This document shows positions 3,834-34,040 of a stretch of 64,000 nucleotides of DNA, piece after piece; the first letter of the stretch is position 1; the number at the start of each line of letters is the position of its first letter. The stretch is taken from positions 1 to 64,000 of the IMG/VR virus record IMGVR_UViG_2791355382_000001; one strand, written 5' to 3'. The position numbers and the translations under genes were made by a program. Source of the DNA: a virus. Its lineage: Duplodnaviria; Heunggongvirae; Uroviricota; Caudoviricetes. A model generated the notes under the pieces. It was not told the origin of the DNA. It did not search any database and saw only the letters and a program-made list of their open reading frames with translations.

Positions 3834-3851
3834 AATACATTAATTTTATCA

Positions 3852-5755: not shown

Positions 5756-5756
5756 G

Positions 5757-12559: not shown

Positions 12560-12571
12560 TTTTTCTACCTA

Positions 12572-13042
12572 TTATATAGGATAGTTATTAAGCAATTTTC
12601 TAACGTCCTTTGGAGTGTTATTAACCAGCTCTTTTGAACCTAAATCAATCTTTTGACCTTTCTTGAAACCTTGCTTTTTGCTTAGGTTTCTTGCAGCGTC
12701 ATAATCAACCTTTTTAACTTTGCCTGTATCACTTTTTACAATAATGTTATCCTTATTAACTCCTTGCACGGTATACACAACTGGTTTACTGTAAGCTGAG
12801 GCAAACGCTGAACTTACTCCTAAATAAAAACCAGTCGCTAATCCTGCTAAAACCATAATAGTAACAGTGAGTACCTTCATTGGCTTTACCGTGTACTTAA
12901 CAATCGGTCTAGCTTTACGTCTATCGAACTTTTGAAAAAGCAATAACGCTATTGCTAGTACCAACAACCCACAAGATACGTAGGTCAAGATGTAAACTAA
13001 GCTATGTGCGCTAATTGCTAGGTTTGCTATACTGTTGGGCAT
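12572..13042 (-). CDS. membrane protein (156 aa, 2-3 TM)
   Basis: Hydrophobic N-terminal half. Confidence 0.45.
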   Translation of the reverse strand: MPNSIANLAISAHSLVYILTYVSCGLLVLAIALLLFQKFDRRKARPIVKYTVKPMKVLTVTIMVLAGLATGFYLGVSSAFASAYSKPVVYTVQGVNKDNIIVKSDTGKVKKVDYDAARNLSKKQGFKKGQKIDLGSKELVNNTPKDVRKLLNNYPI

Positions 13043-13045
13043 AAC

Positions 13046-13189
13046 TCACCACCACCTTTCTAAAACTTCTTGATGGAGTTCATCAAGTTTTTCGTTTAGC
13101 TCTTTCCAAGCTTGTTTTAGCTCAATGATTGCTTCTTTTAACTCTTGTAAGCTTTGTTTGAACAACGCTTTTGGATCTTGATCTGGCAT
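13046..13189 (-). CDS. small coiled-coil protein (47 aa; MPDQDPKALFKQSLQELKEAIIELKQAWKELNEKLDELHQEVLERWW)
   Basis: Not in the ORF track because it is under 60 aa. Tandem paralogue of the next small ORF; the two DNA copies align over about 130 bp. Confidence 0.4.
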   Translation of the reverse strand: MPDQDPKALFKQSLQELKEAIIELKQAWKELNEKLDELHQEVLERWW

Positions 13190-13193
13190 AAGT

Positions 13194-13331
13194 TCACCTG
13201 CTTTCTAAAATATGATTCAGCTCATCAAGCTGTTTATTCAGCCCTTTGATAGATTGTTTTAGCTCAACAGCTGCTTTTTCCGACTCTTTTAAGCCCTGTA
13301 TAAATTCTTCTCTTGGGTTTTGATCTGGCAT
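13194..13331 (-). CDS. small coiled-coil protein (45 aa; MPDQNPREEFIQGLKESEKAAVELKQSIKGLNKQLDELNHILESR)
   Basis: Internal ATG of the called ORF 13194..13406. The upstream part of that call overlaps the flotillin gene's 3' end. Paralogous to 13046..13189. Confidence 0.4.
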   Translation of the reverse strand: MPDQNPREEFIQGLKESEKAAVELKQSIKGLNKQLDELNHILESR

Positions 13332-13347
13332 AAATCCACGTTCTTTC

Positions 13348-20798: not shown

Positions 20799-21017
20799 TA
20801 TTTGTTGTGGCAAGCTTTATTAATGCAAATAAAAAACACCTATCAACTAGGTGCCTCGTACATGTCGACATTGTACAGAGTAGACAGTGCATTTCTGCCT
20901 GCGATTATATTATTACTATTTTTTCATTCAATTGTCAATAAAAAAGCTTGATCCACAGCTAGATGTAGCTATGGTTTTAGGTTTTAATATTTATATTTAA
21001 ATAAACGAATATATGAC

Positions 21018-21328
21018 CTGTCTTTGCCTATGTCATTCTGGCTAAGTTCAAAACCTTTCTTTTAGGAGTCTTACACCTATATCACTCAGTTAGGTTCAGA
21101 ACACAACTTTATCTTGAGAAATACGTTTCTTTGGTCTTACACCTATGTCATTTAACTTAGGTTCAGAATAAAGAATGACTTAAAAGTCCCTTATTTAAAG
21201 TCTTGCACCTATGCCATTTAACCAAAGTCTTGCACCTATGCCATTTAACCTAGGTTCAGAACGTGGCGGTAGCGAAAGCAACTCATACCAAGGTCTTGCA
21301 CCTACATCAATTCAACTAGGCTCAGAAC
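21018..21328. CRISPR. CRISPR-type array 1: 5 repeats of GTCTT(A/G)CACCTATG(T/C)CATTTAAC(C/T)TAGGTTCAGAAC (one truncated at 21200-21226) plus a degenerate distal repeat at 21018-21053
   Basis: Read directly. Repeats at 21068-21102, 21134-21169, 21200-21226 (truncated), 21227-21262 and 21293-21328. Unique 30-31-nt spacers at 21103-21133, 21170-21199 and 21263-21292. The conserved element begins at 21329. Confidence 0.85.
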
Positions 21329-21467
21329 CATTGTTTCCTAACCTATATTTAATTGTGACATAAGCTTCTTGGGAACTCTTCGGACTTGCGACACCTTACT
21401 GTTAGATTAACTAACTGGTATTGTAGAGGTTAAAGATATTGGCCAAGCTGTCGAGAACAAGCGTCCT
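21329..21467 (-). ncRNA. conserved array-adjacent element, copy A (CRISPR leader or omegaRNA/tracr-like scaffold); the only complete copy with no tRNA-like module
   Basis: About 140 nt, roughly 80-90% identical to copies at 22367-22506, 24668-24806, 25542-25690, 32192-32318 and 33375-33500. All end ...CCAAGCTGTCGAGAACAAGCGTCCT. Orientation is assumed from the copy abutting the TnpB-like gene. Confidence 0.6.
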
Positions 21468-22132
21468 TCAAATTTTATTATCTAACGCTCAAATAACACT
21501 TCAAACATGAGCTTTCACTCTGCTTATATGTGCTACCGCTTATTATGCGAACGTTTCAAAAGGTCTGAGCAACAAGGAGCTACCTTGCTACTTCCTTTTG
21601 CCTTAAATAACGTGGCTACTATGATAAGTACCAACTTTCAGGCAATCATTCAGAACTTTGTTTTTATTTTAATCTTAATTGTTGTATGTGGATTTCAAGT
21701 CCAAGACAACAATTACTGTCTGTAATCTTGATGCCATTGCCCTACTTGTTCTTGTTTCCGTTGTTATAGCTCAGTTTCCTAAGCGTCAAGGCAAACACTG
21801 TCTTTGGTTATTCCCATCTCACCACCTAGCTACCACCCTAAGCTGCCAATGGGTTATTCTCACACCGTGAGCGTCTATTTTATCCAGTGCCAACGGTCAA
21901 CAAAGCACTAACGTCACACACTTCCACATACGCACCAAACGTCCTAGCTTTTACCAGGTTTGATAGTTATTGCTAATAATCTCTCGACTTATCTAAGCTA
22001 TCACTCAGACTACATCTACTACGAATTACAGGTACATATCCGACAAGATTTGACTAAAACCCTTATGCAATCGGTTATGCTTGAAGCGTTATTTGAACGG
22101 TAAATAATTTCTGATTCTGGATCCTCTATATA

Positions 22133-22366
22133 GCCTTACACCTATGTCATTTAACCTAGATTCAGAACTTTTAGCAACGATGTCATAATCAGTTTTCTGT
22201 CTTGTACCTATGTCATTTAACTTAGGTTCAGAACTATATTATCCAGGACTTGGAGTTCAAGTAGGTCTTACACCTATGCCATTTAACTTAGGTTCAGAAC
22301 TACTCTCCAAATACCTTATTTCCACTACAAGTCTTACACCTATGCCATTTAACTTAGGTTCAGAAC
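22133..22366. CRISPR. CRISPR-type array 2 (4 repeats, 3 spacers of 30 nt)
   Basis: Repeats at 22133-22168 (distal variant GCCTTACA...), 22199-22234, 22265-22300 and 22331-22366. Spacers at 22169-22198, 22235-22264 and 22301-22330. Confidence 0.9.
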
Positions 22367-22506
22367 CTTTGTTTTCTAACCTATATTTAATTGTGACACA
22401 AGTTTCTTGGGAACTCTTCAGACTTGCGATGTCTTACCGTTAAATTAACCATCGACACACCGTAGAGGTTAAAGATGTTTACCAAGCTGTCGAGAACAAG
22501 CGTCCT
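22367..22506 (-). ncRNA. conserved array-adjacent element, copy B. It lies directly downstream of the TnpB-like gene's 3' end, separated only by the tRNA-like module
   Basis: Conserved sequence. Its array-proximal roughly 35 nt (TTTTCTAACCTATATTTAATTGTGACACAAG) resemble a degenerate repeat. Together with 22511..22571 it forms an omegaRNA-like 3' unit of the TnpB-like gene. Confidence 0.6.
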
Positions 22507-22510
22507 CCTA

Positions 22511-22571
22511 TAACGATGGCAGGAGTTGAACCTGCATCTGTTACCTTGCCTTACCGTTAGGCTACATCGCT
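22511..22571 (-). ncRNA. tRNA-like minihelix lacking the anticodon arm; overlaps the last 15 nt of the TnpB-like CDS
   Basis: Minus-strand read: acceptor stem AGCGATG/CATCGTT, D-arm GCCT-AACGGTA-AGGC, a 13-nt linker in place of the anticodon stem-loop, a canonical T-arm GCAGG-TTCAACT-CCTGC, discriminator A, and no encoded CCA. Confidence 0.6.
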
Positions 22572-24044
22572 ACTTGTTTCTTCTTTAGGTGTGGTTTTAT
22601 TTTTAGCTCCACACTTAGTACATGTCCACTTTTCATCTTGTGTGATAACCGTACGTTCATGCCCACATTTCTTGCAAGTATCATTCATCTTATCAAGCAA
22701 GTCTAAACCTTCATCTAAGATGTTTTTAGCTGCGTTAATATCTTGATCGTGGTGTGAATTACAGATAGGACAAGTCCACTTACGGTCGCTTAATTTAAGG
22801 TTGTGCTTAATGTAACCACAAGTATGGCAACGCTTTGAAGTTGGTGACCAACGATCAATAAACACAATCTTTTTATCAGCCCAGTCCATCATGTAAGTGA
22901 GCGTATCTCTAATTTCACGAAAGTTTGATCTAGTGATTGCTCTAGCACGGTATTTGTTCTTTTCCATGTCTGAAACAGCTAGGTCTTCCATAACGATTAC
23001 ATCATATTCATTAGCAAGCTTTGAACATGTCTTTTTAATATAGTCTTTCTTTAAGTTTTTAATACGTAAATGTAACTTAGCAATCTTCTTTTTGTTCTTT
23101 TGGTAATTGCTACGTTCAGCCAATGTAGGAACATGCTTTGGAATTAAGGCTTTTTTATTGTCTTCTTCAATGATTGCAACCTCTTTTTTCCATTGTTCAT
23201 ACTTGCGACTACGCTTTACGTTTTCTTTTTCAATCTTTTGTTCTAATTTTCTGATTTTGTCATATGGCAATTGGTATCTAGTACCATCTTGTAAAACAAT
23301 ATGACTGTTACCTGTTACGTTTAAGTCAATACCAGCTGCTAAACCAGTTCTAGGACGTTTTACTGTATGCTCAGCTTGTTCAAACACAAATGATACATAC
23401 CAAGTATCGCTGGATTCATGCTTAATTGTTACTTTATACAAACGTCCGTCACTAGGATAGTGATTAGCCATCTCAATTAAGCCTAACTTAAATCTTTTCA
23501 ATTTACCTACTCTAAGGTGCTTGCCGTCTTCACTGATTTCACAAACATGAGCGCCTGAGGTATAACTACCTTGATTTTCAACGTCCATTGTTGTTTTAAA
23601 CCTAGGAATACCAAAGTGTCTAGGGTTTTTCAAATGGTTGCTCATCGCTGTTTTTAAAGTACGTAAAGTGTAACTATACATGCTAGTATCAGCGTCTTTT
23701 AAAGTCCAACCACTTTCAAACACAGTTTCATCAGCATCGTAAATAGCCTTAGTCGAAAGTCCACGTAAACCTTTGAACAAATCACGTTGCTCTTCCCATG
23801 ACATTCTTTCAATGCGTTTATAAACTTCTTTACTTTGTTTGTTCCTAGGTAAAGCTTGAACTTCATCTAACTCACTAACTGGCTTATAAACTTCAGCTAG
23901 TAATGCGTTCCACATCTTGATATTAGCAAACATATTAAACGTTAAATATGCTTGTTGATCCTTAGTAGGATAAATTCTAATTCTACGACTTTCTAAAACT
24001 TTTTCTTCCATTTTTCTACAACTCCTTTTAAAATACCAATGCAA
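22557..24044 (-). CDS. tnpB: TnpB/Cas12-like RuvC nuclease, enlarged (495 aa) with an extra C-terminal zinc ribbon
   Basis: N-terminal RIRIYPTKDQQAYL (TnpB WED/REC signature). RuvC-I AAGIDLN, RuvC-II VIVMEDLAVSDM, Zn finger CHTCGYIKHNLKLSDRKWTCPIC, RuvC-III HDQDINAAKNI, and an additional CKKCGH...CTKCG ribbon. The REC-like region before RuvC-I is about 245 aa, longer than canonical TnpB. Confidence 0.85.
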   Translation of the reverse strand: MHWYFKRSCRKMEEKVLESRRIRIYPTKDQQAYLTFNMFANIKMWNALLAEVYKPVSELDEVQALPRNKQSKEVYKRIERMSWEEQRDLFKGLRGLSTKAIYDADETVFESGWTLKDADTSMYSYTLRTLKTAMSNHLKNPRHFGIPRFKTTMDVENQGSYTSGAHVCEISEDGKHLRVGKLKRFKLGLIEMANHYPSDGRLYKVTIKHESSDTWYVSFVFEQAEHTVKRPRTGLAAGIDLNVTGNSHIVLQDGTRYQLPYDKIRKLEQKIEKENVKRSRKYEQWKKEVAIIEEDNKKALIPKHVPTLAERSNYQKNKKKIAKLHLRIKNLKKDYIKKTCSKLANEYDVIVMEDLAVSDMEKNKYRARAITRSNFREIRDTLTYMMDWADKKIVFIDRWSPTSKRCHTCGYIKHNLKLSDRKWTCPICNSHHDQDINAAKNILDEGLDLLDKMNDTCKKCGHERTVITQDEKWTCTKCGAKNKTTPKEETSSDVA

Positions 24045-24119
24045 TTTATGTATAATCTTTTGGCTGACTACACTACATTAACCTTCCACAACGGACGTCT
24101 TTATTTGTGCTATCAGCAC

Positions 24120-24215
24120 TTTTTTGGGAACTCTTCAACAAAGAAAAGCAACCTGCAATTCTTTGCTTGCGAAGATGTTTACCAAACTGTGAAGAGCAAG
24201 CACCCTCCTATAACG
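24120..24215 (-). ncRNA. partial copy C' of the conserved element (tRNA-proximal about 95 nt only), immediately upstream of the TnpB-like gene's 5' end
   Basis: Keeps GGGAACTCTTC...GATGTTTACCAAACTGTGAAGAGCAAGCACCCT but lacks the array-proximal repeat-like part. Confidence 0.45.
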
Positions 24216-24272
24216 ATGGTAGGAATCGAACCTACGTCGCCTCGCTTTGCTCTGCCATTGAGCTACATCGTT
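24211..24272 (-). ncRNA. tRNA-like minihelix lacking the anticodon arm (copy C)
   Basis: Minus-strand read: AACGATG-TA-GCTC-AATGGCA-GAGC-A-[13 nt AAGCGAGGCGAC...]-GTAGG-TTCGATT-CCTAC-CATCGTT-A. Canonical D- and T-arms with a 13-nt linker instead of the anticodon arm. Confidence 0.6.
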
Positions 24273-24302
24273 ATTTTGACTTTAATTAAGCCCATGATTT
24301 CA

Positions 24303-24667
24303 GTCTTACACCTATGTCATTTAACCTAGGTTCAGAACTGTGAATTATAATCACTCACATAAACGTGAGTCTTACACCTATGTCAATTCAACTAGGTTCA
24401 GAATCCAAGTCGGCTTGTGAGTGTATGGAAGATAGTCTTACACCTATGTCATTTAAACTAGGTTCAGAACGATCTCCCAAGCGAAGGAATCGAAGGCATG
24501 GTCTTACACCTATGTCATTTAAACTAGGTTCAGAACTATGCTCTAAAGCTCTGAATGTTTTTCTTGGTCTTACACCTATGTCATTTAACTTAGGTTAAGA
24601 ACGTAGGACTGTCATACCTATTCCCAATACGAGTCTTACACCTATGTCATTCAACTAGGTTCAGAAC
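24303..24667. CRISPR. CRISPR-type array 3 (6 repeats, 5 spacers of 30 nt)
   Basis: Repeats at 24303-24338, 24369-24404, 24435-24470, 24501-24536, 24567-24602 and 24633-24667 (the last is a 35-nt variant). All spacers are unique. Confidence 0.9.
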
Positions 24668-24806
24668 CATTGTTTCCTAAACTATATTTAATTGTGACAT
24701 AAGCTTCTTGGGAACTCTTCAGACTTGCGATGTCTTATTGCTAGATTAACTAACTGACAACGTAGAGGTTAAAGATGTTTACCAAGCTGTCGAGAACAAG
24801 CGTCCT
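24668..24806 (-). ncRNA. conserved array-adjacent element, copy D
   Basis: Sequence conservation with the other copies. A tRNA-like minihelix follows at 24811-24858. Confidence 0.6.
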
Positions 24807-24810
24807 CCTA

Positions 24811-25095
24811 TAGGCACTAGTGGAATTGAACCACTATTACAGTAACCATACGTGCCAACCTACAATAAATATAAAGGAGATGCAGGCATAAATTCCTGCG
24901 ATAGATACAATGTACGCAGGGGTTAAGGAGAAACCCCCTATTAGCACTGGTAGAATCGAACTACCACTAAGCAACCATGCGTGCTAACCTTGAGTAAATC
25001 ATTCAGTACAATCACACCGCCGCCACGAACCCTAGATGGCGGCAATAAGCATAGCTAGAATCGAACTAACTTTTATTCCAAAATGCTTAGATTTG
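24811..25095 (-). repeat. cluster of three tRNA-like minihelices (T-arm plus acceptor stem; 24811-24858, 24939-24990, 25045-25088) with GC hairpin GCCGCCACGAACCCTAGATGGCGGC at 25018-25042
   Basis: On the minus strand each reads GGCAC...[about 15 nt]...TGGTAG-TTCGATT-CTACCA...GTGCC, i.e. a T-loop consensus GTTCGATTC closed by a 5-7-bp acceptor-like stem. The 25045-25088 unit plus the GC hairpin is repeated at 33040-33120. Confidence 0.5.
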
Positions 25096-25109
25096 CTAAG
25101 TCATGATAA

Positions 25110-25541
25110 GTCTTACACCTATGCCAATTCAACTAGGTTCAGAACTAGTATATATGCAGATGAGCCGCTAGTACTGTCTTCAACCTATGTCATTTAGCCT
25201 AGGTTCAGAACAGGACTTCACCACCGTCTTCTAACTTTCGCGTCTTATACCTATGTCATTTAACCTAGGTTCAGAACAAAACTTGTTTACGATGCCCTCA
25301 CTACTAAGTCTTGCACCTATGTCATTTAACCTAGGTTCAGAACTATCAGCTCCAGGGAATTCAGCAGAGCCACGTCTTGCACCTATGTCATTTAACCTAG
25401 GTTCAGAACTAAAAACGATGAAAGCGATAGATGATTTCGGTCTTGCACCTATGTCATTTAACCTAGGTTCAGAACATAATATTATTGCCCAAAACGCTGC
25501 GTTCTGTCTTGCACCTATGTCATTTAACCTAGGTTCAGAAC
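25110..25541. CRISPR. CRISPR-type array 4 (7 repeats, 6 spacers of 30 nt)
   Basis: Repeats at 25110-25145, 25176-25211, 25242-25277, 25308-25343, 25374-25409, 25440-25475 and 25506-25541. Spacers are unique. Confidence 0.9.
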
Positions 25542-25690
25542 CGTTATTTTCTAACATATATTTAATTGTGACATAAGTTTCTTGGGAACTCTTCAGACTT
25601 GCATAATCGTAAACAAACTAATGCAATTTGCGATTATACAGAGGCCGAAGATATTAACCAAGCTGTCAAGAACAAGCGTCCTCCAAATAG
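25542..25690 (-). ncRNA. conserved array-adjacent element, copy E
   Basis: Sequence conservation; the central part diverges (CATAATCGTAAACAAACTAATGCAATTTGCGATTATACAGAGG, similar to copy F). Followed by a tRNA-like minihelix at about 25696-25744. Confidence 0.55.
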
Positions 25691-25695
25691 CGATG

Positions 25696-25744
25696 GCAGG
25701 AGTTGCACCTGCATTGATCTACCGTTTGGCATCGCTACACATAA
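25696..25744 (-). ncRNA. tRNA-like minihelix (copy E): acceptor AGCGATG/CATCGCT, a D-loop-like remnant, T-arm GCAGG-TGCAACT-CCTGC
   Basis: Minus-strand reading; no anticodon arm. Confidence 0.5.
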
Positions 25745-26476
25745 AATGTACATAAATGAATAAAGATAAAGTTAAGATTATAAGGCTTGTGCTAATGCTT
25801 ACAGGAACGATAGAGGCTTACATGTAGTTTACTGATGTCCCTGTAGGCTTAACCCTTTGCCTTACGTTTATTATAATACACTATCTCACACTCTAAGTCA
25901 AATGTTTTTGTATACTTTTTTAAAATAAAATTCGAAAAAGTTAAAAAATAAAAAAAGCCACAAGCCTAGGTAACCCTAGATGTGACTTTCTTAACTAGAG
26001 CGAAACAAACATTAAGGAGCCTCAACTGTTTTTCGCTAGTTCTATTTTAACATAAACACTAACGTTTACAATTATCCTAATGTTTGTTTTATCATCAGTT
26101 TCTTTAACCATCTTAAAACGCTTCCTTTAATTGTTTTTCTTTACTTTTGGATCCATGCCATGTATTATTGTATATGAAAAGAGGACAAACAGGTCGCAAC
26201 TGTTTGCCCTCGAGCGTGAATGTTTAAGGCTATTGTGTGTTGGCTAATTATGATTACTTAAAATCATGATTAGCTTTTTTTATTATCCAATACGCAACGG
26301 CAACGTCTATTGTAAATAATTATGCGTAAACCTAGAAAAAGCTTGAATATCATAAAAAAAGGCTATATACTGAAAGTGTGTCGTATCAGTATATAGCCTT
26401 GTTCCTAGCCTATTTTCTAGGAACTTTTTTTTATTTATAACCAAGCATCGCACAAACGAATATCTAGTCCTTCTTC

Positions 26477-26592
26477 CTACTTTTTTTCTTGCATTTTAGC
26501 AACTTTTGCTTCAGCTTCTTCGATGGAATTAGCATTAATAATTACATTTTCGTGGACTTTACCATCTACTATATCTATTTGATACCAAGACA
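26477..26592 (-). CDS. small ORF (38 aa; MSWYQIDIVDGKVHENVIINANSIEEAEAKVAKMQEKK)
   Basis: Has an RBS GGAAGGAG. A truncated paralogue (MGWYQIDVVDGKVQ...) with the same RBS sits at 28283-28345, so the two copies bracket iscB. Confidence 0.35.
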
Positions 26593-26711
26593 TATTTCTT
26601 CACTCCTTCCCAGTCGTGTTCAATAATAATTTGGTGAGAAGTAGGATAGCCTTAGCTTGCTTAAAACAAGCTGAACTCACCACACTTCTTTTTTTATATA
26701 ATATTATTAAT

Positions 26712-28031
26712 CTATCCCATAGCATATTGCTTTTCAGTAATTGCTTGTTTTTGCCAATTATTATGATGCGATAATCTATCTAACTTAGATAAAGCCACTT
26801 TCCTATATCTATCAGATGTTGTTAGATAATTACCAAATATATCTTTAATATAACAAGACGATTGACTAAATCCACTAATATAACCTTTCTTGTTACTATC
26901 CTTGATTCTGACATAATCATTAAGCCAAAAACCTTTGGCATATTTAGTATTTCTAGCGTTTCTTTTACTTGTTATATTAGGTGTCTTACGACCCTTACGT
27001 GCCGTAGCCTCATGTAAGGAACGCTTTTTCTTTCTAAATTGCTTAAACATCATAATGCTAGTTGGTTTTGCTTTGATTTTTTTAATGCCACTAATTGCTA
27101 CAGCGTCATTATAGTGGGACTTGGTTAATTCTAAATCGACTCGCTGTAATGTTGTCCATGCTCCATACTGAAATTTAGCTTGTGGGAAAGAAGTAAATAG
27201 TCTTCTTCTTAGAATGTTCATGAAAGTCGCACCTTTATAAGACTTGTTGACTTTCTTTTTATCCTTACACCACTTAGCTAAGATTCCACTTTGATGGTTT
27301 TTAGTTGTATGACACTTAGAACATACGGTAATTAGATTATCTATGGTATTAGTTCCACCTAAGGAGCGATAGATAATATGGTGGATTTTGAGTTTACCAC
27401 CCTTTTTTTTACATACTTGACAAGTATAGTTATCTCTAGCCAAAACAAATTGTTTAACAGTTTGATAACCGTATAAATCACCTTGCTGATAACCCTCACC
27501 ATTTATTGCTGGATTCTTCATTTTTTGCATATCAAACTTACCAACTTCGATATGTAAATCAGCTTTAGGTAGAACTGATAATAATCTTTTTATCCAGTTG
27601 ATATTATGGTTAACCTTACTTGCCACTGATGGTGGCAACCAGTTATCTTTTTTACTAGCTATACGGTTTAAAAACCTCGCTTTACGATAACGTGTCTTAC
27701 GATTACGTCGACTTCTACGGTATATTCTTCTAGTATCTATCAGTTTTTTAACATCTTGTCTTAACTCTACTTCGCCTTGAAATAAGACTTTATCTTGGCT
27801 TGTAACAGCTAAACCAATATGTCGTTGACCGCTATCAATTCCAATACTTACATCTTGTTTATAGCCAGTTGAACCATATAAGAGCTGAATGGTAAAAGGC
27901 TCTTTTTTTAAGACTTTTGCTTTACCATCTCTCAACAAAATTCTAGCTTTTCTAGGTTTACATGGCATTAGTGCTTTACCATGTTTATTAATGACAAAAA
28001 CTCGGTTTTGCATAGTTTGTACTCCTTCCAT
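26712..28031 (-). CDS. iscB: IscB (OMEGA RNA-guided nuclease; RuvC split by an HNH insert, N-terminal PLMP domain)
   Basis: PLMP motif KALMPCKPRKARILLRDGKAKV. RuvC-I SIGIDSGQRHIGLAV. HNH HHIIYRSLGGTNTIDNLITVCSKCH with flanking CQVC and CSKCH. RuvC-III KSHYNDAVAISGI. Confidence 0.85.
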   Translation of the reverse strand: MEGVQTMQNRVFVINKHGKALMPCKPRKARILLRDGKAKVLKKEPFTIQLLYGSTGYKQDVSIGIDSGQRHIGLAVTSQDKVLFQGEVELRQDVKKLIDTRRIYRRSRRNRKTRYRKARFLNRIASKKDNWLPPSVASKVNHNINWIKRLLSVLPKADLHIEVGKFDMQKMKNPAINGEGYQQGDLYGYQTVKQFVLARDNYTCQVCKKKGGKLKIHHIIYRSLGGTNTIDNLITVCSKCHTTKNHQSGILAKWCKDKKKVNKSYKGATFMNILRRRLFTSFPQAKFQYGAWTTLQRVDLELTKSHYNDAVAISGIKKIKAKPTSIMMFKQFRKKKRSLHEATARKGRKTPNITSKRNARNTKYAKGFWLNDYVRIKDSNKKGYISGFSQSSCYIKDIFGNYLTTSDRYRKVALSKLDRLSHHNNWQKQAITEKQYAMG

Positions 28032-28330
28032 TTTTTATAAGGTATCTATGACCTTATCACGTATTTATCAGAGTTAATAAATACATGTTCTTACCCTTCG
28101 ACAATGTTATCTCAGCTTATAAACAAGGTTGACTAGCACATTAACCTTATGCTTGTTTACAGAGCCTTCATAGAGCTAGAAACTAGGGTATCATTTCTAG
28201 GTATGATCACTGAAATAACGTAGTTACTTAAAACTTAGTCTAGACAACAAGGCTTGTAGTTTATTGCTACAAGTCACCTACTTTAGTAGGTGGTTACTGT
28301 TGACTGCACTTTTCCGTCTACCACGTCGAT
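28032..28330 (-). ncRNA. candidate IscB omegaRNA region (upstream of iscB, same strand)
   Basis: The position matches known IscB omegaRNAs (5' of iscB). Contains stable hairpins (CTAGAAACTAGGGTATCATTTCTAG; TAGGTGGTTACTGTTGACTGCACTTTTCCGTCTACCAC). Called from position and structure only. Confidence 0.3.
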
Positions 28331-29105
28331 TTGGTACCAACCCATATTTCTTCACTCCTTCCAAGCCGTTTTCAAAGTATTTAAAGCGTTCGTAATAGCT
28401 TAAGTATCGGCTCTTTTTAACTTCTAAATTTCTAGGGTTAACTTTTAGTTTAGCTACCCAATCACCCTTACGTTGATAGTTACTACAGATGTGTATGTTT
28501 TCTTGTGGATCATCATCTTTAACGTAAGGCATACCTACATGTTCAAGCGTAATGTCTTTTAAGCCAAACTTAGTAGCGTAGAATCCATGTTCAATTCGGC
28601 CACGATAAGTGCCTACCATCGCAGTAAAATGAATGGTATCACCAACTGAGATGTAAATAGTTTGATCATCGTTGCCTTCAAAGTTGGTAATATCAGAAAA
28701 TCTAATCCATAAATGAGTGGCTAGTTTTCTGAACATATCAACTCTAGTTGCACCTTGCGTGTACTTGTATTCACTGAAATACGATTGTTCAACCAACAGT
28801 TGGCTATTCCATGGATCTTCAGGATCAATTTTAATGTCAGACACGATTGCAAATACGTCTAATTTAGTGTTGACGTAATCTTGTAAAACAAAGCGACTAG
28901 AGCTTTTTTCAGGCTTTGTTTGTAGTAAGAGTGCAGCTGTAGCTATTCTAGCTTGATTAGCATTTTGCTTGACTTCCTTGTAACCACTTAGGATAAAACC
29001 AAACGGTGAATGGTGCTTATCAGCGGTTGGAATTTTAGGAACAGCTTGCTTTTGCTCTTGTTTTTTATCTTTCTTTAAGCGTTTAATATACTTCTTTTTG
29101 TCCAT
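28278..29105 (-). CDS. hypothetical protein (275 aa), downstream partner of the Panacea-domain gene; putative toxin
   Basis: ORF 22 nt downstream of the Panacea-domain gene in the same operon. No motif recognised. Confidence 0.4.
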   Translation of the reverse strand: MDKKKYIKRLKKDKKQEQKQAVPKIPTADKHHSPFGFILSGYKEVKQNANQARIATAALLLQTKPEKSSSRFVLQDYVNTKLDVFAIVSDIKIDPEDPWNSQLLVEQSYFSEYKYTQGATRVDMFRKLATHLWIRFSDITNFEGNDDQTIYISVGDTIHFTAMVGTYRGRIEHGFYATKFGLKDITLEHVGMPYVKDDDPQENIHICSNYQRKGDWVAKLKVNPRNLEVKKSRYLSYYERFKYFENGLEGVKKYGLVPNRRGRRKSAVNSNHLLK

Positions 29106-29127
29106 TAATCACCACTCCTTTTTTTAG

Positions 29128-29679
29128 TTAGTTTTCACTTGAATCAACCGTTAGTAGCCACTTTTGATTATCGGCAAAGCATTGCTCAATTTCAGAGTTT
29201 GTGTATTCTGCGTATTCGTATGTTCTTCTATGCCCTAATATTTCACTAAGTTCGTTTATAACAGGGTCTTTGTGAGTCCTATGGTTTATGATAACTTTGC
29301 CTAACTGCCAACTCGGCTTAGAAATCAAGGCTTGAGTGACCTTTTCTAATTCTTTTACTTGAGCTTCAGGCAAGCCTACTTTTGCTTGATAAGTCTTGAT
29401 TAGAGAAAAATGTGACAATTCAAGCACTATTTTAGGACTTGTGATGTTCCCTGGCCCATAAAATTTAAACTCCCTAATAATTTCTTCGTTGAGTACACCG
29501 TGGGGATAACTCTTAAACTCACAATCCATTAACGGTTGTTTGTGCTTATCTAAATAATATCCTTGCAAGAAAAACAGGACTTTACAAAGCTTGAGATAGC
29601 TTAGGTCTTGCTTTTGTTTTAACGCTAATTCGATAGCAAAGTTAGCTACAGCCATCGTAGTTTGAGTCTTTATTTCCAT
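29128..29679 (-). CDS. Panacea-domain (DUF4065) protein, putative antitoxin
   Basis: LSYLKLCKVLFFLQGYYLDKHKQPLMDCEFKSYPHGVLNEEI fits the Panacea/SocA-like pattern (KLQKLLYFAQ...GxPLF...WxxGPV). Confidence 0.55.
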   Translation of the reverse strand: MEIKTQTTMAVANFAIELALKQKQDLSYLKLCKVLFFLQGYYLDKHKQPLMDCEFKSYPHGVLNEEIIREFKFYGPGNITSPKIVLELSHFSLIKTYQAKVGLPEAQVKELEKVTQALISKPSWQLGKVIINHRTHKDPVINELSEILGHRRTYEYAEYTNSEIEQCFADNQKWLLTVDSSEN

Positions 29680-29687
29680 AAAACCAC

Positions 29688-29882
29688 CTACTTTGCTAAA
29701 TAGTCTTTTACGCTGTCACTAGCAGCTTGGTCTAACTTACGTCTGTGATATAGTCGATTACCCATGCACCAAGGACAAGTTCCATGGTTACGGCAAGTTT
29801 GGTCTACAGCTTTTGAGCCGTAATAAGGTTTGCGATGTTCTTTTCCATGTTTGATTGCTTTTTCTAGTCCCATATAAATCAC
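29688..29882 (-). CDS. small CxxC protein (64 aa)
   Basis: CRNHGTCPWC; in the operon just upstream of the Panacea-domain gene. Confidence 0.35.
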   Translation of the reverse strand: MIYMGLEKAIKHGKEHRKPYYGSKAVDQTCRNHGTCPWCMGNRLYHRRKLDQAASDSVKDYLAK

Positions 29883-29902
29883 CTCTTTTTGGCAACACTA
29901 AC

Positions 29903-30970
29903 CTAAGCCACAGCGTATTGTGGTTTAGTTCCAAAACTAGTTAAGCTATTGACTTCAATCAGTTCATCTTGAGCTAATTCAAAGTTGTCAGACAAGTATG
30001 TCTTAATGCTATTAGCGATGTTGTTACGAATGTAAGAATACATAAAGCTTTCAGTGTTTCTAACCTTTTCTTGACCTTTGTAAATAATTTCAGTCATTCT
30101 AATTAATGCAGACTCTAAACCTTTGATTAACAAACTGTTAGTTTCAAATCTTGTAGCTTCTTGACTTGCAGGATTGTATAACCAATTAGAACTAGATAAT
30201 AACTTATTAGTCACTTGGCTTTTAGCTTTAAAGATAGTGTTAACAATAAACTTAGCTTGCTTGTAATCACCTTGAGCTAAAACTTCAACTCTACCCCATA
30301 CAGCAGGAGTTAAAACGTTAGATATTCTGTTTTTCAAAGCTAACATAGCTGTTTTATTAACGTTGTAGTCTACCTTTGAGTCGATAGAAGAAGGAGATGG
30401 TTGATTACTAATTTTTTGTAAGTTAGGATTTGATTCATATGTTTCATTTGTATTATTATATATATCTCTCTTAGAGTCTTTCTCACTTATAGGATTATTT
30501 TTCATGCCTGTAGCTGAATTATCTTCACTCACGTACTGGCCAATTATTCTAACAAGGTCTTCATTAACGTTATTACTATCGTTGATACTATTACTTTTAT
30601 CAGTACTTTTAACCTTTTTTTGAACGCTTGCTTGTGGTTCATGCACATAGATTTTGTAATGCTTTAAGCCAAGTCTTTTTACACTGATTAAGCCATGGTT
30701 AACTAACTCTTTACGTAACTTAGATACAGTTCTGCTAGTTGTACGTACTTTTTCAGCTGCTTCTTCATTAGTGAAGATAATGTATGGATTACCTTTTTCA
30801 TCAACAAAATCTTTATTTCCATTTTTAGCGCTATTAATAGAGCAAGTTAAACGTCTTGCATAAAGTGAATATAACAAGATTGATAGACCGCTTAAGTCTT
30901 TGTATTTTTCATCTTCAATTAATGTATCTGATACTTTTGTAAATGTTCCTTCAACGTTAGTTTTAGTCAT
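29903..30970 (-). CDS. RepA_N-family replication initiator
   Basis: N-terminal LSILLYSLYARRLTCSINSAKNGNKDFVDEKGNPYIIFTNEEAAEKVRTTSRTVSKLRKELVNHGLI matches the firmicute plasmid RepA_N winged-helix pattern (LSAKNGW.DE.G.VYIIFT.EE...). Confidence 0.7.
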   Translation of the reverse strand: MTKTNVEGTFTKVSDTLIEDEKYKDLSGLSILLYSLYARRLTCSINSAKNGNKDFVDEKGNPYIIFTNEEAAEKVRTTSRTVSKLRKELVNHGLISVKRLGLKHYKIYVHEPQASVQKKVKSTDKSNSINDSNNVNEDLVRIIGQYVSEDNSATGMKNNPISEKDSKRDIYNNTNETYESNPNLQKISNQPSPSSIDSKVDYNVNKTAMLALKNRISNVLTPAVWGRVEVLAQGDYKQAKFIVNTIFKAKSQVTNKLLSSSNWLYNPASQEATRFETNSLLIKGLESALIRMTEIIYKGQEKVRNTESFMYSYIRNNIANSIKTYLSDNFELAQDELIEVNSLTSFGTKPQYAVA

Positions 30971-30985
30971 ATTAAAACTTCCTTT

Positions 30986-31258
30986 CTAGTATTCGTCATC
31001 GTCTTCTTCATCATCTTCATCAAACAAGTCATGAATGCCTAAATTATCAAGTAACAAACTTGCGATTAAGATTTTTACTTCTTCGTGTAATGGCTCAAAC
31101 AAAGATGTGATAACCCTAATAGTTGTTTCAGGGCTTAGTTGACCTTCCATCATAGTTCTTTCGCCTTTTCTAAGTACCATTAAAGTTTCTTCGTAGCCTG
31201 CGTCTTGGAGTAATTTAGTAGTTTCATCAGCAATTTTTTTAATTTCGCTTGAACTCAT
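30986..31258 (-). CDS. hypothetical acidic protein (90 aa)
   Basis: ORF with a poly-D/E C-terminus. Confidence 0.35.
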   Translation of the reverse strand: MSSSEIKKIADETTKLLQDAGYEETLMVLRKGERTMMEGQLSPETTIRVITSLFEPLHEEVKILIASLLLDNLGIHDLFDEDDEEDDDEY

Positions 31259-31274
31259 GTATAAACCTTCCTTC

Positions 31275-32030
31275 TTAATCTATGTTTTCTTGGTAAGAAT
31301 CGTATTTCCAAATGTAAGTCCAACGATCGTCTACCCATTCTCGTTCACGTAGAATCGTACCTTGGTTGTCTAGCATTGTGTACTTCCAATGTAAACCATC
31401 GTTTTCTCTCCAAACAAACGCTAACCAGATAATGTCTTGCTTGTTGGACATACGTAAGATATAAGTTTCAAACGTGTTCATTGGTGTACGGTTTAGCCAA
31501 CTGTCAAAATCAATAAGTAAACCCTTGTGCCTTTCAATGCCTGTAATCTGCGATGAAATTAAGTGTGTTCTATCAACGTGATTAGGGCTTAGGCTACCTG
31601 GAATCTTAGAGTTAGGATTTTCTGAATTTAAGTCAGCTACAATGTAGGACTCATGCTTAACTCTTTGGCTTTTAGTAGCGCTTTTTTCAATTGCAGGAAA
31701 ATGACCCCTAGCATTTTTACCATTCCTTTTTCGCCAAGCTTCTCTAAACTTTTCTTCACTGTCGATACCGTTAGCAATCAAGTCTAAATAATCTCGGTTA
31801 TAAGCAAAGCCTGTGTTTTGTTTTACGTACACACAAGCTACGTGATGCGTTGGTGTATGCTGCCACAAAACCGTGTTAGGATCTACTTGATTGATGTATT
31901 TTAAAGCCTTAGATAAGCTAAAAATATTGGCACTGGTTACTTCATATACGTCAGTGCCACCGTTATTAACATTGTTTAAAATTGCGTTGAATTTTTTGAT
32001 TGCATAATCTCGAGTAATGATTTTGCTCAC
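31275..32030 (-). CDS. DNA/RNA non-specific endonuclease (NucA/EndA-like, DRGH-type)
   Basis: HVDRTHLISSQITG resembles the DRGH active-site motif. 251 aa. Located immediately downstream (minus strand) of array 5 and element F. Confidence 0.5.
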   Translation of the reverse strand: MSKIITRDYAIKKFNAILNNVNNGGTDVYEVTSANIFSLSKALKYINQVDPNTVLWQHTPTHHVACVYVKQNTGFAYNRDYLDLIANGIDSEEKFREAWRKRNGKNARGHFPAIEKSATKSQRVKHESYIVADLNSENPNSKIPGSLSPNHVDRTHLISSQITGIERHKGLLIDFDSWLNRTPMNTFETYILRMSNKQDIIWLAFVWRENDGLHWKYTMLDNQGTILREREWVDDRWTYIWKYDSYQENID

Positions 32031-32058
32031 TTCCTTATCTAAGCTATCTATAATTACA

Positions 32059-32191
32059 GTCTAAGGCTTATGCCAGTTTAATTCTCTTTCAATCCTAGTC
32101 TTAGCACTTATGCCGTTCTAACTAGATTCAGAACTTTTTGAAAATAGATATTTTAGTCTTCAACCTACGTCATTTCAGCTAGGCTCAGAAC
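32059..32191. CRISPR. CRISPR-type array 5 (degenerate: about 3 decayed repeats, 1 short spacer)
   Basis: Repeat-like copies at 32059-32094, 32098-32134 and 32157-32191 with strong divergence. It abuts element F at 32192. Confidence 0.55.
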
Positions 32192-32318
32192 CTATATTAA
32201 ATTGTGACATAAGCTTCCTGGGAACTCTTTAGACTTACATAATTGCTAACTAACTAATGCAAGTTGCGATTATGCAGAGGTTAGAGATGTTTACCAAGCT
32301 GTCAAGAACAAGCGTCCT
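32192..32318 (-). ncRNA. conserved array-adjacent element, copy F (array-proximal part shortened)
   Basis: Sequence conservation; ends ...CCAAGCTGTCAAGAACAAGCGTCCT. Confidence 0.55.
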
Positions 32319-32322
32319 TCAA

Positions 32323-32383
32323 TAGCGATGACAGGAGTCGAACCTGTATCTCATGCCTTGCTCTACCGTTAAGCTACATCGCT
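32323..32383 (-). ncRNA. tRNA-like minihelix lacking the anticodon arm (copy F)
   Basis: Minus-strand read: AGCGATG-TA-GCTT-AACGGTA-GAGC-[14 nt]-ACAGG-TTCGACT-CCTGT-CATCGCT-A. Confidence 0.6.
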
Positions 32384-32394
32384 ACACACACACT

Positions 32395-33125
32395 TTTTAT
32401 TAAGGGAGGAAAAAGTGTTGTACATATACATTCCGATTAGTTGGTTCGCCCTTGCGTTGGCAAAGGCTATTGGCACTGGTAGAATCGAACTACCACAAAA
32501 GCAACCATGCGTGCCAACCTTAAAAAAATAAAAAAGGAAAGATATTTTTGTTGCCCCACTAGGGTTATTTTAGCCCTTGTTTTACCAAGGAAATTAGCAC
32601 CAGTGGAGTCGAACCACTGTAAAAGCAACCGTACGTGCCAACCAAATCATAAATATTAAATCAAGGAGTTATGTTAGTTAGGATAATTATTACTATCCTA
32701 AAGAGAAAAAGTTTTGAGTTTGTAGCTTAATGCTACAATTGGCACTAACAGAATCGAACTGTTACAAGACAACCATGCGTGCCAGCCGATAAGTAACTTT
32801 TAAAAAAGGAGTAATATACAACCATTTTAGGGTTTATTCAAGCCCTATTGGTGTTAGCGGAATCGAACCACTATACAGCAACCATGCACACCAACCAATA
32901 TCTTAAGAGTTTATATAATAAGGCATTTGAGCCTAAAATAAGAGGAAATAGTTTTAGGGTTGTTATACCCTATTGGTAGCCAAGGAATCGAACCTTGATA
33001 CAACCACTCTACCAACTTATAAGTAATAGTTTTAGTGCAAGTGCGTTGCCACTACGAAGCTTAGGTAGCGGCAATAAGCATAGCTAGAATCGAACTAGCT
33101 TTTATTCCAAAATGCTTGTTAGATA
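32395..33125 (-). repeat. tandem array of six degenerate 100-130-bp units, each with a tRNA-like T-arm/acceptor minihelix (GAATCGAAC on plus strand = GTTCGATTC T-loop on minus strand)
   Basis: Minihelices end at about 32517, 32645, 32770, 32895, 33018 and 33118. Each is preceded on the plus strand by an AT-rich stretch with AAGGAG-like motifs and a TAGGGTT...AACCCTA hairpin. Confidence 0.55.
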
Positions 33126-33138
33126 AACCTGTGATAAT

Positions 33139-33374
33139 GTCTTATCTTATGCTAGTTTCAATTAGGTTCAGAACCTTTACAGTTAATAATGAATACAGTA
33201 GTAGGTGTCTTCAATCTATGTCAATTCAACTAGGTTCAGAACATGTGATGGATATGTTAATCAATGGTTGTCGTCTTGCATCTATACCATGTCAGATAGG
33301 TTCAGAACTATGGTCAAGATTATATAAAATCTAGGCATGTCTTCAACCTACGTCAATTCAATTAGGATCAGAAC
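33139..33374. CRISPR. CRISPR-type array 6 (4 repeats with drift, 3 spacers of 30-32 nt)
   Basis: Repeats at 33139-33174, 33207-33242, 33273-33308 and 33339-33374. Spacers are unique. Confidence 0.75.
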
Positions 33375-33500
33375 CTATATTTAATTGTGACATAAGCTTC
33401 TTGGGAACTTTCCATGCTTGCAATGTTTTACCGTTAGATTAACCAACGTTACACCGTAGAGGCTAGAAATATTTACCAAGTTGTCAAGAACAAGCGTCCT
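33375..33500 (-). ncRNA. conserved array-adjacent element, copy G
   Basis: Sequence conservation. A tRNA-like minihelix follows at 33505-33558. Confidence 0.55.
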
Positions 33501-33504
33501 CCAA

Positions 33505-34040
33505 TTAGCACTAACGGAATTGAACCGTTATTACAGCAACCATGCGTGCCAACTCAATAATTACTATAGAAAGGTTTTACTATGGCAAAACACTAGCATT
33601 ACCATCTTTTAGGGTTTATCCAACCCTATTGGCACTAGCGGAGCCGAACCGCTATGAAAGTAACCGTACGTGCCAGCCGTAAGTCGAATCGAATATATAA
33701 AGGAGTAAAGAGATGCGAGTGTTCGCAATCTTTTAGGGTCTGTTTCAACCCTATTGGCAGCCAAGGACTTGAACCTTGATGCAACCATTCTGCCAACCAA
33801 TTTAATTAATTCAATAAAATAAAGGAGAATAGGGTCTATGGCAACCCTATTGGCACTAACGGAATCGAACCGTTATTATAGCAACCATGCGTGCCACACC
33901 CAGTTAGTAAGTAAAGTAACATATAAAACGAAAGGAGCGATGCAAACAATGTTTGCAACCTTGAGCCAAGCTTTAGCTTAGCTCTATTAGCAGTTAGAGA
34001 ATCGAACCCTAACAAAGCAACCATGCCTGCTATAAGATGG
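33505..34040 (-). repeat. second tandem array of five tRNA-like minihelix units (100-130-bp period)
   Basis: GAATTGAACC / GAGCCGAACC / GACTTGAACC / GAATCGAACC / GAATCGAACC cores, each closed by a GGCAC...GTGCC-type stem and preceded by an AACCCTATTGGC hairpin. The ORF-track calls here (33609..33800, 33836..34075) are translation artefacts of the repeat. Confidence 0.55.

Follow-up and report, generated by a model that had tools for sequence, protein, structure and literature searches.

TnpB-derived nucleases that work with CRISPR arrays and have no adaptation genes form a described class, for which forty V-U branches (V-U6 to V-U45) have been listed (PMC10691335). In TranC systems (Jin et al., Cell 2025, as cited in bioRxiv 10.64898/2026.03.27.714800), the transposon RNA is described as split to give a tracrRNA (trans-activating CRISPR RNA) plus a crRNA (CRISPR RNA). 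The TranC and V-U6–V-U45 systems pair a TnpB-like RuvC nuclease of TnpB size with stably linked arrays of 3–20 repeats of 32–38 bp (bioRxiv 10.64898/2026.03.27.714800; PMC10691335; PMC13565253). Adaptation genes are absent, some members are phage-encoded and the guide is a tracrRNA-like scaffold plus a crRNA, thought to have arisen by splitting of an omega RNA (or right-end element RNA, reRNA); the TranC enzyme can use both forms. Miniature Cas12 enzymes encoded by phages are also known. Here we describe a locus that resembles these systems, at positions 21018–33500 of a 64,000-nt stretch of DNA (IMG/VR record IMGVR_UViG_2791355382_000001, positions 1 to 64,000; the whole stretch is referred to as the window). 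The region is 92% identical to NZ_CP123973.1, a 166.6-kb linear plasmid of Ligilactobacillus salivarius. The whole analysis is computational, and its evidence for mechanism comes from comparison and sequence. In our view the locus is probably a CRISPR system that derives from TnpB and resembles type V, of the V-U/TranC kind; a linear megaplasmid would carry it and it would serve in competition between mobile elements. A preliminary description of this stretch named the loosely characterised type V-U class for small TnpB-like effectors with arrays, and could match the repeated unit of element plus array to no described subtype; TnpB nucleases with arrays and no adaptation genes are, as outlined above, a described class.

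The nuclease gene (22557–24011, minus strand) encodes a TnpB-like (TranC/Cas12-like) protein of 484 residues counted from its ATG, with the Pfam domains OrfB_IS605 and Cas12f1-like_TNB. The longest open reading frame (ORF) begins at a TTG at 24044 and gives 495 residues, the length first proposed; homologues and the annotation of the near-identical plasmid gene point to the ATG at 24011 as the likely start, so that the family assignment stands and the length becomes ~484 residues. The corresponding protein of NZ_CP123973.1 is 98% identical. The RuvC residues D240, E353 and D435 and a CxxC..CxxC zinc finger (four cysteines) are invariant in 16 aligned members of the clade. By sequence, the closest solved structures are ISDra2 TnpB (E 3e-28) and then LaTranC (E 6e-16), Cas12n and Cas12f; LaTranC, the one TranC enzyme compared, is distant and matches the RuvC part of the nuclease only. 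The AlphaFold2 model (mean predicted local distance difference test score, 81) has its closest folds in 8h1j, 8iaz, 9jfq, Fanzor2, Cas12f and Cas12p, TnpB ranking first, LaTranC next and Cas12f after it, with a probability of 1.00 for the match to TnpB, TranC and Cas12f. NCBIfam returns guided_TnpB at 179 bits and IS200_TnpB at 208 bits, the latter under its cut-off of 425, and the best PADLOC models are Cas12u4 (115 bits) and Cas12f (110 bits). The clade (440–509 residues) comprises 23 clusters at 47–95% identity among 5.8 billion proteins; the next relatives beyond it are ordinary TnpBs at ~31% identity (E about 1e-38). It is present on one plasmid only in PLSDB, and no member was found among 50,697 annotated phage records.

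With the TnpBs of IS200/IS605 elements (ISDra2, ISFba1) the nuclease has in common its best sequence and fold matches (8h1j, 8iaz), a single RuvC with a zinc finger, and a large structured scaffold RNA whose 3′ end carries the guide. It differs from ISDra2 TnpB in a longer helical insert between RuvC-I and RuvC-II and in an extra C-terminal zinc ribbon. Its setting also differs from that of an insertion sequence. No tnpA or insertion-sequence ends lie beside the gene, the flanks being made up of arrays, scaffolds and tRNA-like elements; the gene is single copy and occupies the same place in four replicons; and the scaffold does not overlap its 3′ end. Whereas an IS200/IS605 TnpB has one guide, set by the insertion site, many exchangeable 30-nt guides against foreign plasmids and phages are found here. 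Cas12f (V-F) and Cas12n (V-U4), too, are miniature effectors that have a tracrRNA and short arrays and lack adaptation genes, and Cas12f reads a T-rich, 5′ protospacer-adjacent motif (PAM). The nuclease is closer to TnpB than to these enzymes in sequence and fold, its cassettes are laid out differently and its repeat has a hairpin of its own.

The CRISPR repeat is 36 nt long. An exact 36-mer search finds 16 matches at ≤3 mismatches, against 0 expected, and a hidden Markov model (HMM) of the repeat finds 29–30 copies in a single orientation, grouped into six mini-arrays with a period of 66 nt (36-nt repeat plus 30-nt spacer). The preliminary description, which had given at least 29 copies with 30-nt spacers in six arrays, is borne out on this point. 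All arrays are on the minus strand. Array A (21027–21328) has six repeats in the HMM search, those at the far end decayed; array B (22133–22366) has four repeats and three spacers; array C (24303–24667) has six repeats and five spacers, one of which matches 16 phage-like contigs; and array D (25110–25541) has seven repeats and six spacers, one matching L. salivarius megaplasmids at 30/30 positions. Arrays E (32099–32191; 2–3 repeats, with a 21-nt spacer) and F (33160–33374; four repeats, with spacers identical to ones of NZ_CP123973.1) are built of diverged repeats. Within array A, at 21200–21262, a repeat is cut off after 24 nt (21200–21223) and followed, 3 nt later, by a full repeat at 21227; this fused repeat looks like a scar of recombination or deletion. 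A search with a narrow pattern for the 3′ motif of the repeat in 185,579 species-representative genomes (one genome per species) gave 89 isolated chance matches, and neither an array nor a chromosomal cas locus with this repeat.

A conserved element of ~145 nt accompanies the arrays. An HMM and a covariance model find seven copies, all on the minus strand: six full copies scoring 142–158 bits with the covariance model, each adjoining the high-coordinate end of an array, and one variant scoring 48 bits. The full copies are A (21330–21478; 149 bits), directly 3′ of a ROOL RNA; B (22368–22517; 157 bits), which immediately follows the tRNA-like element of the nuclease gene's 3′ end; C (24669–24817; 158 bits); D (25543–25693; 144 bits); E (32179–32329; 142.5 bits), whose terminal hairpin runs straight into the first repeat; and F (33362–33511; 151 bits), before which lies a mini tRNA-like unit. 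The ~140-nt element reported earlier, in seven copies, on the high-coordinate side of every array is thus confirmed, the variant copy having no array. Also confirmed is the order in which the nuclease stop codon is followed by a tRNA-like element (22511–22571), element B and array B.

We aligned 21 distinct copies of the element from seven systems. In the consensus, a 5′ hairpin is joined by three long-range stems nested in one another (P1, CTTGG/CCAAG; P2; P3/P4) and by an apical hairpin that varies. Paired cells make up 94.3% of the alignment, against about 48% when the partners are slid by 1–3 columns; 14 of the 25 consensus pairs are changed on both sides, and none of 500 shuffles reaches any of five covariation measures. 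The RNA is assigned to the minus strand because G-U pairs are frequent. The element is a structured RNA, probably a scaffold derived from an omega RNA, and not a plain leader, the role that the preliminary description named for the case of orphan arrays. A sigma-70 promoter within the element was considered and rejected: the TTCCCA and TTAAAT boxes belong to paired or hairpin stretches, the variant upstream of the gene retains them, and a consensus scan found no promoter-like site on the minus strand inside any scaffold copy. The element matches no Rfam family, whether by gathering score, over 5 kb with E ≤ 1, or by itself with E ≤ 10. By eye only, the scaffold core (GGUAAACAUCUUUAACCUCUAC, nested stems and junctions of 3–6 nt) resembles the Transposase-1 RNA motif found elsewhere in the window. 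Neither covariance model links the scaffold with that motif (63533–63591), and the scaffold model finds only its seven copies; we treat the likeness as a lead, not a result.

The variant (24082–24217, minus strand) forms the 5′ untranslated region (UTR) of the nuclease gene and has no array. Of the scaffold structure, the 5′ hairpin, P1 and P2 are retained, P1 showing compensatory changes (TTTGG/CCAAA), and the terminal hairpin is missing. It is kept upstream of the gene in the related plasmid (L001), in an IMG/VR relative (L009) and in L010 and L170, down to a homologue of 74% identity. It could be an autoregulatory decoy.

The link between arrays and nuclease, for which the preliminary description had adjacency alone, is supported by conservation across the clade. 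Genomic contexts were taken for nine clade clusters, and scaffold and array adjoin the gene in L002/L003, L004/L005, L006/L007, L008, L009, L010, L168, L169 and L170. This association holds in every clade locus with enough flanking sequence, down to 47% identity, with a repeat sequence that varies by locus. In two diverged phage-like contigs, L002 (124 kb) and L004 (95 kb), whose nucleases are 65–70% identical, the order is tRNA-Arg, ROOL, element, array, nuclease gene and tRNA-Asp; the tRNA-Asp gene follows the nuclease stop codon and the scaffold lies upstream. In L168, L169 and L170 (67–74% identity) a tRNA-like element, the scaffold element and repeats precede the gene, and in L008 (50% identity) the repeats in the same order number two or three. 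In L006 (47% identity) the gene comes first, followed by element and array, and a SIR2-domain gene lies just upstream. Among 163 loci, the element profile has matches in clade loci only. The repeats themselves differ (GGCTGATACCTGTACAGAATGTCATAGGTAGAAAGC in L002, GTATATAACCTATGCAAAATGGTATAGGTATAGGTC in L169) and have in common an internal hairpin, ACCTATGT-N6-ACATAGGT, with compensatory changes, followed by a purine-rich tail. Because the array follows the protein across the clade, an array that serves the host Cas9 only, or a chance neighbour, is disfavoured. In the locus of L006, the most distant clade member, we also observed that a 1066-residue SIR2_2 / Dsr1-like gene (within 3784–8723) stops 14 nt short of the TnpB-like gene. 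Behind the latter come the scaffold and a four-repeat array with a different, 29-nt repeat; an integrase is near. SIR2 and an RNA-guided nuclease may be combined here in one defence module.

The repeat and the 3′ end of the scaffold are alike. The last ~45 nt of the scaffold (GTTCCCAAGAAGCTTATGTCACAATTAAATATAGGTTAGGAAAC) align with the repeat (GTTCTGAACCTAGGTTAAATGACATAGGTGTAAGAC), with the same start, the same kind of hairpin and a similar tail, and from strand, hairpin and tail the repeat appears to be a duplicated copy of the scaffold 3′ end. In L004 and L170, the terminal hairpin of the scaffold leads into the repeat's own tail, to which a 30-nt spacer is directly joined, with ordinary repeat-spacer units after it. 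This layout reads as an omega RNA with its guide, that is, as a fused cis form. A comparison of all scaffold columns with all repeat columns yields a single complementarity that is kept in all seven systems: 9 bp that join CYUAUGUCA, the 5′ arm of the scaffold terminal hairpin, to UGACAUAGG, the repeat hairpin's 3′ arm; in L169 a G-C pair is replaced by A-U. The intermolecular form is favoured in co-folding, at −20 to −27 kcal/mol compared with −13 to −18 kcal/mol for two separate hairpins. A second anti-repeat in the scaffold TTTAACCT box was rejected because the box is conserved where repeats have no complementary sequence, and in the seven systems no conserved complementarity indicative of a pseudoknot was found between repeat tail and scaffold. 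The omega RNA arrays of RpoE-associated inactivated TnpB (PMC10691335) offer a parallel in layout, with tandem scaffold-plus-guide units, several targets and a half-repeat fused to the tracrRNA. Those proteins are nuclease-dead regulators with repeats of >60 bp and single guides, whereas here the RuvC is intact and the scaffold heads a true array.

The cassettes are punctuated by tRNA-like elements, all parts lying on the minus strand. These elements (60–62 nt) fold with acceptor, D and T arms, and the 17-nt anticodon arm is replaced by ~7 nt. They score 44–52 bits as Rfam tRNA, and the Rfam search of the window found three of them, each 61 nt long; ARAGORN detects no tRNA in them. The first (22511–22571; 48 bits) overlaps the nuclease stop codon, the second (24211–24272; 49.5 bits) lies between array C and the scaffold variant, the third (25690–25740; recognized by sequence and fold) is directly 5′ of scaffold D and the fourth (32323–32383; 50.7 bits) is directly 5′ of scaffold E. 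Similar elements without an anticodon arm occur in L168 (445–505), L169 (192–251) and L009. Scaffolds begin 0–5 nt past a tRNA-like element, with copy A starting ~11 nt past the ROOL RNA (21490–22098; Rfam RF03087, 225 bits), which lies between array B and scaffold A. Each array is followed by the next tRNA-like element or ROOL. The nuclease mRNA region is itself bounded by two tRNA-like elements, with the scaffold variant as its 5′ UTR. The order ROOL, scaffold, array recurs in L002 (ROOL at 6743–7308), L004 (7072–7639) and L009 (6033–6643), and in the phage relatives the module sits inside a tRNA gene cluster in the same orientation.

Smaller units are also present. Three mini tRNA-like units (~50 nt, acceptor plus T arm) with hairpins lie between array D and scaffold C (24818–25080, minus strand), and another, with a weak tRNA match, lies before scaffold F (33505–33566, minus strand). 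In all we count 13 copies (24830–25080, 32440–33100 and 33505–34040, minus strand), with an acceptor stem and a covarying T arm and without D and anticodon arms; after most of them come a TAGGG..CCCTA hairpin and a stretch of 40–90 nt that varies and often contains CUCCUU. They match no Rfam family.

A promoter-like site, TTGACT-17-TATTAT, was found by consensus scan at 25873–25901, and a terminator-like hairpin lies at 20833–20857, both on the minus strand. Together they could frame a minus-strand transcript of ~5 kb extending from unit D to unit A. The parts would most simply be freed by RNase P and RNase Z cleavage. In engineered polycistronic tRNA-guide RNA arrays, and likewise in mitochondrial tRNA punctuation, tRNA shapes stand between RNAs and are cut by RNase P and RNase Z. 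The present case would differ in being a natural one of bacteria, plasmids or phages, in which the anticodon arm has been lost and processing is predicted from the arrangement.

The spacers point to foreign plasmids and phages. Four L. salivarius replicons carry 45 distinct 30-nt spacers. One spacer, from array D, matches at 30/30 a repeated intergenic segment next to parM in repA-type L. salivarius megaplasmids, and a second, from another replicon, matches the same parM-side segment at 29/30. Others match small RepB/MobV resistance plasmids upstream of repB (30/30), a gene of a sister linear plasmid (30/30) and Lactiplantibacillus plasmids (28/30). A spacer common to three replicons matches 16 IMG/VR phage-like contigs at 29–30/30, just upstream (in the 5′ UTR) of a gene for a sigma-factor-like protein. 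The window version of this spacer is offset by one base from the L001/L009 version and the two match two phage variants, which suggests two separate acquisitions. Among the phage relatives, one spacer of L002 agrees at 29/30 with the ROOL gene in its sister phage, L004. Outside the arrays, no spacer has a match in the replicon that carries it. The 45 spacers from the L. salivarius replicons and 17 from relatives have no match among 50,697 phage records, so that the phage matches come from IMG/VR only; the targeted contigs have no counterpart in the annotated phage collection, and two further spacers gave no match, or their own replicon only.

The 5′ flanks of the protospacers, read in crRNA sense (minus strand), are ATTTTTG, TTTTTTA, TTTTTTT, CTTTCGT, CTTTTAG and CTTTTAAT. 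TTT occupies positions −6 to −4 in all six and TTTT is present in five. The 3′ flanks (AAGAGG, CAAACG, TTATGA, ATCATT, TGATAT and TGGTTC) have no consensus. This pattern fits a candidate 5′ T-rich PAM of type V-like character, the exact position of which is not settled. The strand assignment carries weight here, because a 5′ T-rich motif reads as a 3′ A-rich motif on the other strand.

Spacer content turns over: replicons with nuclease genes 95–98% identical differ in most spacers. In arrays that can be matched between replicons, shared spacers tend to be scaffold-distal and unique ones scaffold-proximal, with some internal losses and a partly mosaic order. The pattern agrees with addition at the scaffold-proximal end.

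Taken together, these features suggest the following scheme. The ~484-residue protein would be an RNA-guided DNA nuclease and the ~145-nt element its scaffold RNA, a descendant of an omega RNA that has taken on the role of a tracrRNA; scaffold and mini-array would form a cassette on one minus-strand transcript. Long minus-strand transcripts would span tRNA-like element, scaffold, array, next tRNA-like element, nuclease mRNA and ROOL, and cutting by RNase P and RNase Z at the tRNA-like elements, to which their fold and the 0–5-nt spacing point, would give the scaffold-array units defined ends. The scaffold would bind the nuclease, and the crRNA would keep the 3′ part of the repeat (UGACAUAGG plus a tail of ~8 nt) 5′ of the spacer. 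This part would either pair with the scaffold CYUAUGUCA arm or form its own hairpin, and the terminal stem of an omega RNA would be rebuilt in trans. The complex is predicted to read a T-rich motif 5′ of the target, as the protospacers indicate, and to cut DNA with its RuvC domain. From the spacer matches, the targets would be competing plasmids and phages, and the outcome the exclusion of rival mobile elements. Spacer turnover would be mostly scaffold-proximal and, with no cas1 or cas2 on the replicon, might, speculatively, be served by host Cas1–Cas2–Csn2 in trans.

Several points weigh against this scheme. The RNA ends and the mode of tracrRNA–crRNA pairing are deduced from sequence alone. 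The complementarity between scaffold and repeat is limited to 9 bp and its partners are near-identical hairpins, so that pairing in trans and two cis hairpins cannot be told apart. About 38 of the 45 spacers have no match. The PAM is drawn from six protospacers in AT-rich DNA, and one flank, CTTTCGT, fits only as TTT at −6 to −4, an offset unusual for type V. A 3′ A-rich PAM, equivalent to a 5′ T-rich motif on the other strand, is used by some type II-A Cas9 enzymes. Given the likeness of the repeat to the host II-A repeat (28/36), host machinery may make some use of it. Most relatives have the array upstream of the gene, and a downstream position is reported as the rule for conserved Cas12–array associations (PMC10691335).

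The alternative that survives best is a division of labour in which the TnpB-like nuclease carries out interference and type II-A adaptation proteins of the host maintain the arrays, through mimicry of their repeat and the scaffold-proximal junction. We hold it only tentatively, as a refinement of the best explanation that does not replace it. The L. salivarius type II-A locus consists of cas9-cas1-cas2-csn2 and a 36-nt repeat, GTTTCAGAAGTATGTTAAATCAATAAGGTTAAGACC (PMC10715006, PMC12502609). The window repeat (minus strand) agrees with this repeat, as published for the species, at 28/36 bases including both ends and the core, and none of 2000 shuffles reaches the score. Only the L. salivarius version of the repeat resembles the II-A repeat of that species; the repeats of L002, L168 and L169 are unlike it. 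The spacers are 30 nt long and turn over with scaffold-proximal polarity, yet the complete related replicon has no annotated cas1 or cas2. That the repeat mimics the II-A repeat to borrow host Cas1–Cas2–Csn2 for spacer addition is a speculative reading of these observations. Opposed to it are the way in which II-A acquisition picks protospacers, by the PAM of Cas9, whereas the PAM here is 5′ and T-rich, and the spacers of 30–31 nt in relatives whose repeats are not II-A-like. Moreover, the II-A content is that described for the species, and recombination between arrays could explain part of the variation in spacer order. An extended form of this proposal would see the locus as a natural tRNA-punctuated operon of at least six cis scaffold-array cassettes, released by RNase P and RNase Z and supplied with spacers by II-A Cas1–Cas2 through mimicry; this, too, seems to us possible and rather unlikely.

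A TnpB-derived type V-like nuclease that cuts its targets also has to be weighed against guiding without cleavage, either to silence the partition and replication regions of rival plasmids or to provide nuclease feedback through decoy scaffolds. Repressors derived from TnpB and Cas12 that are nuclease-dead are known (PMC13565253), intergenic control regions hold protospacers (the parM side, upstream of repB and the 5′ UTR of the phage sigma-factor-like gene), and a guide-less scaffold variant sits in the nuclease's own 5′ UTR. The known repressors have lost their RuvC residues and zinc finger, whereas both are invariant in the 16 clade members, and one protospacer lies inside a coding gene of the sister plasmid. 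We regard guiding of this kind as improbable.

It is scarcely probable, too, that these are orphan type II-A arrays used by the chromosomal Cas9 and tracrRNA of the host, with the element as leader and the TnpB-like gene as an insertion-sequence passenger. The host locus and the repeat likeness described above speak for such arrays, as do a 36/30 geometry typical of type II-A and the known use of host Cas proteins by mini-arrays on mobile elements (PMC11656645). The preliminary description had raised cas genes elsewhere as its alternative and had named a complete cas operon, II-A for instance, with identical repeats as the finding that would make these ordinary orphan arrays. A II-A locus exists in the species, and its repeat is not identical: indels set the two apart in their first 24 nt, where pairing with the tracrRNA takes place. 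A Cas9 PAM would be expected 3′ of the protospacer, where the six flanks have no consensus; the element is a covarying structured RNA and not an AT-rich leader; and element and array track the clade into loci (L002, L168 and L169) whose repeats are unlike the II-A repeat. The homology of the repeat to the scaffold 3′ end and the fixed position of a gene without tnpA or insertion-sequence ends, the same in four replicons, argue in the same direction, and arrays served by cas genes elsewhere are not favoured.

The cas content of the replicon bears on the same question. The Pfam scan covered 20 window ORFs, including most of those above 250 residues, and found no Cas9-, Cas1- or Cas12a-like protein among them, shorter ORFs of cas2 or cas4 size being outside the scan. 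The earlier statement that the window has no cas1, cas2, cas4, cas9 or cas12a-sized gene thus holds for cas9, cas1 and cas12a within this set. The complete 166.6-kb relative has no annotated cas gene in the PLSDB gene table, which is incomplete, so that small unannotated genes are possible. A 1081-residue gene of the related plasmid was considered as a possible Cas9 and rejected as an Eco57I-like methylase. No further region with the repeats and scaffold elements was found in the window or in the 166.6-kb plasmid.

It is very improbable that the effector of the arrays is the IscB (RRXRR and HNH domains in Pfam; 26712–28031, minus strand) encoded 1.2 kb from array D, as in described CRISPR-associated IscB loci: an IscB is also present in L008, and a motif that is 3′ and A-rich when read on the opposite strand would be suitable for a Cas9-like enzyme, but immediately upstream of this IscB lies a full-length HEARO omega RNA of its own (28087–28304, minus strand; 211/211 Rfam model positions), to which the scaffold has no similarity, and among the related loci with gene calls or an annotation, IscB occurs only in L008 and L001 and is absent from L002–L007 and L167–L171.

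The TnpB-derived system appears to work like the V-U and TranC systems and is best filed with them; what stands out is the repeated cassette organisation and not the principle. It differs from them in that the scaffold is fused 5′ of the array on the same strand, that this unit is repeated 6–7 times for one nuclease, that units are bounded by tRNA-like elements or ROOL and that the array lies upstream of the gene in most relatives. In the papers that we read we found no description of a cis-fused scaffold-array, of 6–7 cassettes per gene or of tRNA-like punctuation, nor of a constant ROOL neighbour, a scaffold variant in the nuclease leader or a repeat that resembles that of a host II-A system.

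The replicon is probably a linear megaplasmid of L. salivarius, and relatives of the system appear to reside on large phages. A 180-kb relative of the replicon is filed in IMG/VR as a viral genome. The proteins encoded in the window include ParA, RepA_N, DnaB, FtsK/SpoIIIE, an M23 peptidase and a ClpB-like ATPase (Pfam). Linear megaplasmids of L. salivarius have been described earlier, without mention of the features reported here (PMC4165912). In NZ_CP123973.1, the same RepB, transposase and hypothetical genes are present in inverted order at both ends (L172, 15866–17089; L174, 43839–45062), which indicates long terminal inverted repeats.

The replicon seems to be rich in RNA-guided nucleases. 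The annotation of the related plasmid lists two iscB genes and six genes for an 'RNA-guided endonuclease TnpB family protein', one of them the nuclease studied here. The window also encodes an ordinary TnpB of 388 residues (62331–63497, plus strand), with the Transposase-1 RNA motif (63533–63591, plus strand; Rfam) at the 3′ end of its gene. In the related plasmid L001, two extra, near-identical genes for TnpBs of 418 residues lie in the cassette region (12428–13684 and 26838–28094); the window has neither. Ordinary TnpB elements appear to move into the cassette region of non-coding RNAs.

The locus looks like a young CRISPR system and may represent an early stage in which an array grows from the 3′ end of a transposon guide RNA, with fused and split forms present within one clade, and it would make the RNA-splitting model of type V origin testable in a cultivable lactic acid bacterium. 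If the tRNA-punctuated operon outlined above is true, it would stand, as a living intermediate, midway from omega RNA to CRISPR array, and would also hijack adaptation across CRISPR types. The tRNA-like punctuation and the constant ROOL neighbour may inform on how phages process clusters of non-coding RNAs. With a nuclease of ~484 residues, a scaffold of ~145 nt, naturally multiplexed cassettes and a T-rich PAM candidate, the system is also a compact candidate editor. The RNA-guided nucleases of a linear megaplasmid and of related large phages appear to be directed at co-resident plasmids, at sister replicons and at temperate phages, which would bear on plasmid incompatibility and on strain engineering in the probiotic L. 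salivarius.

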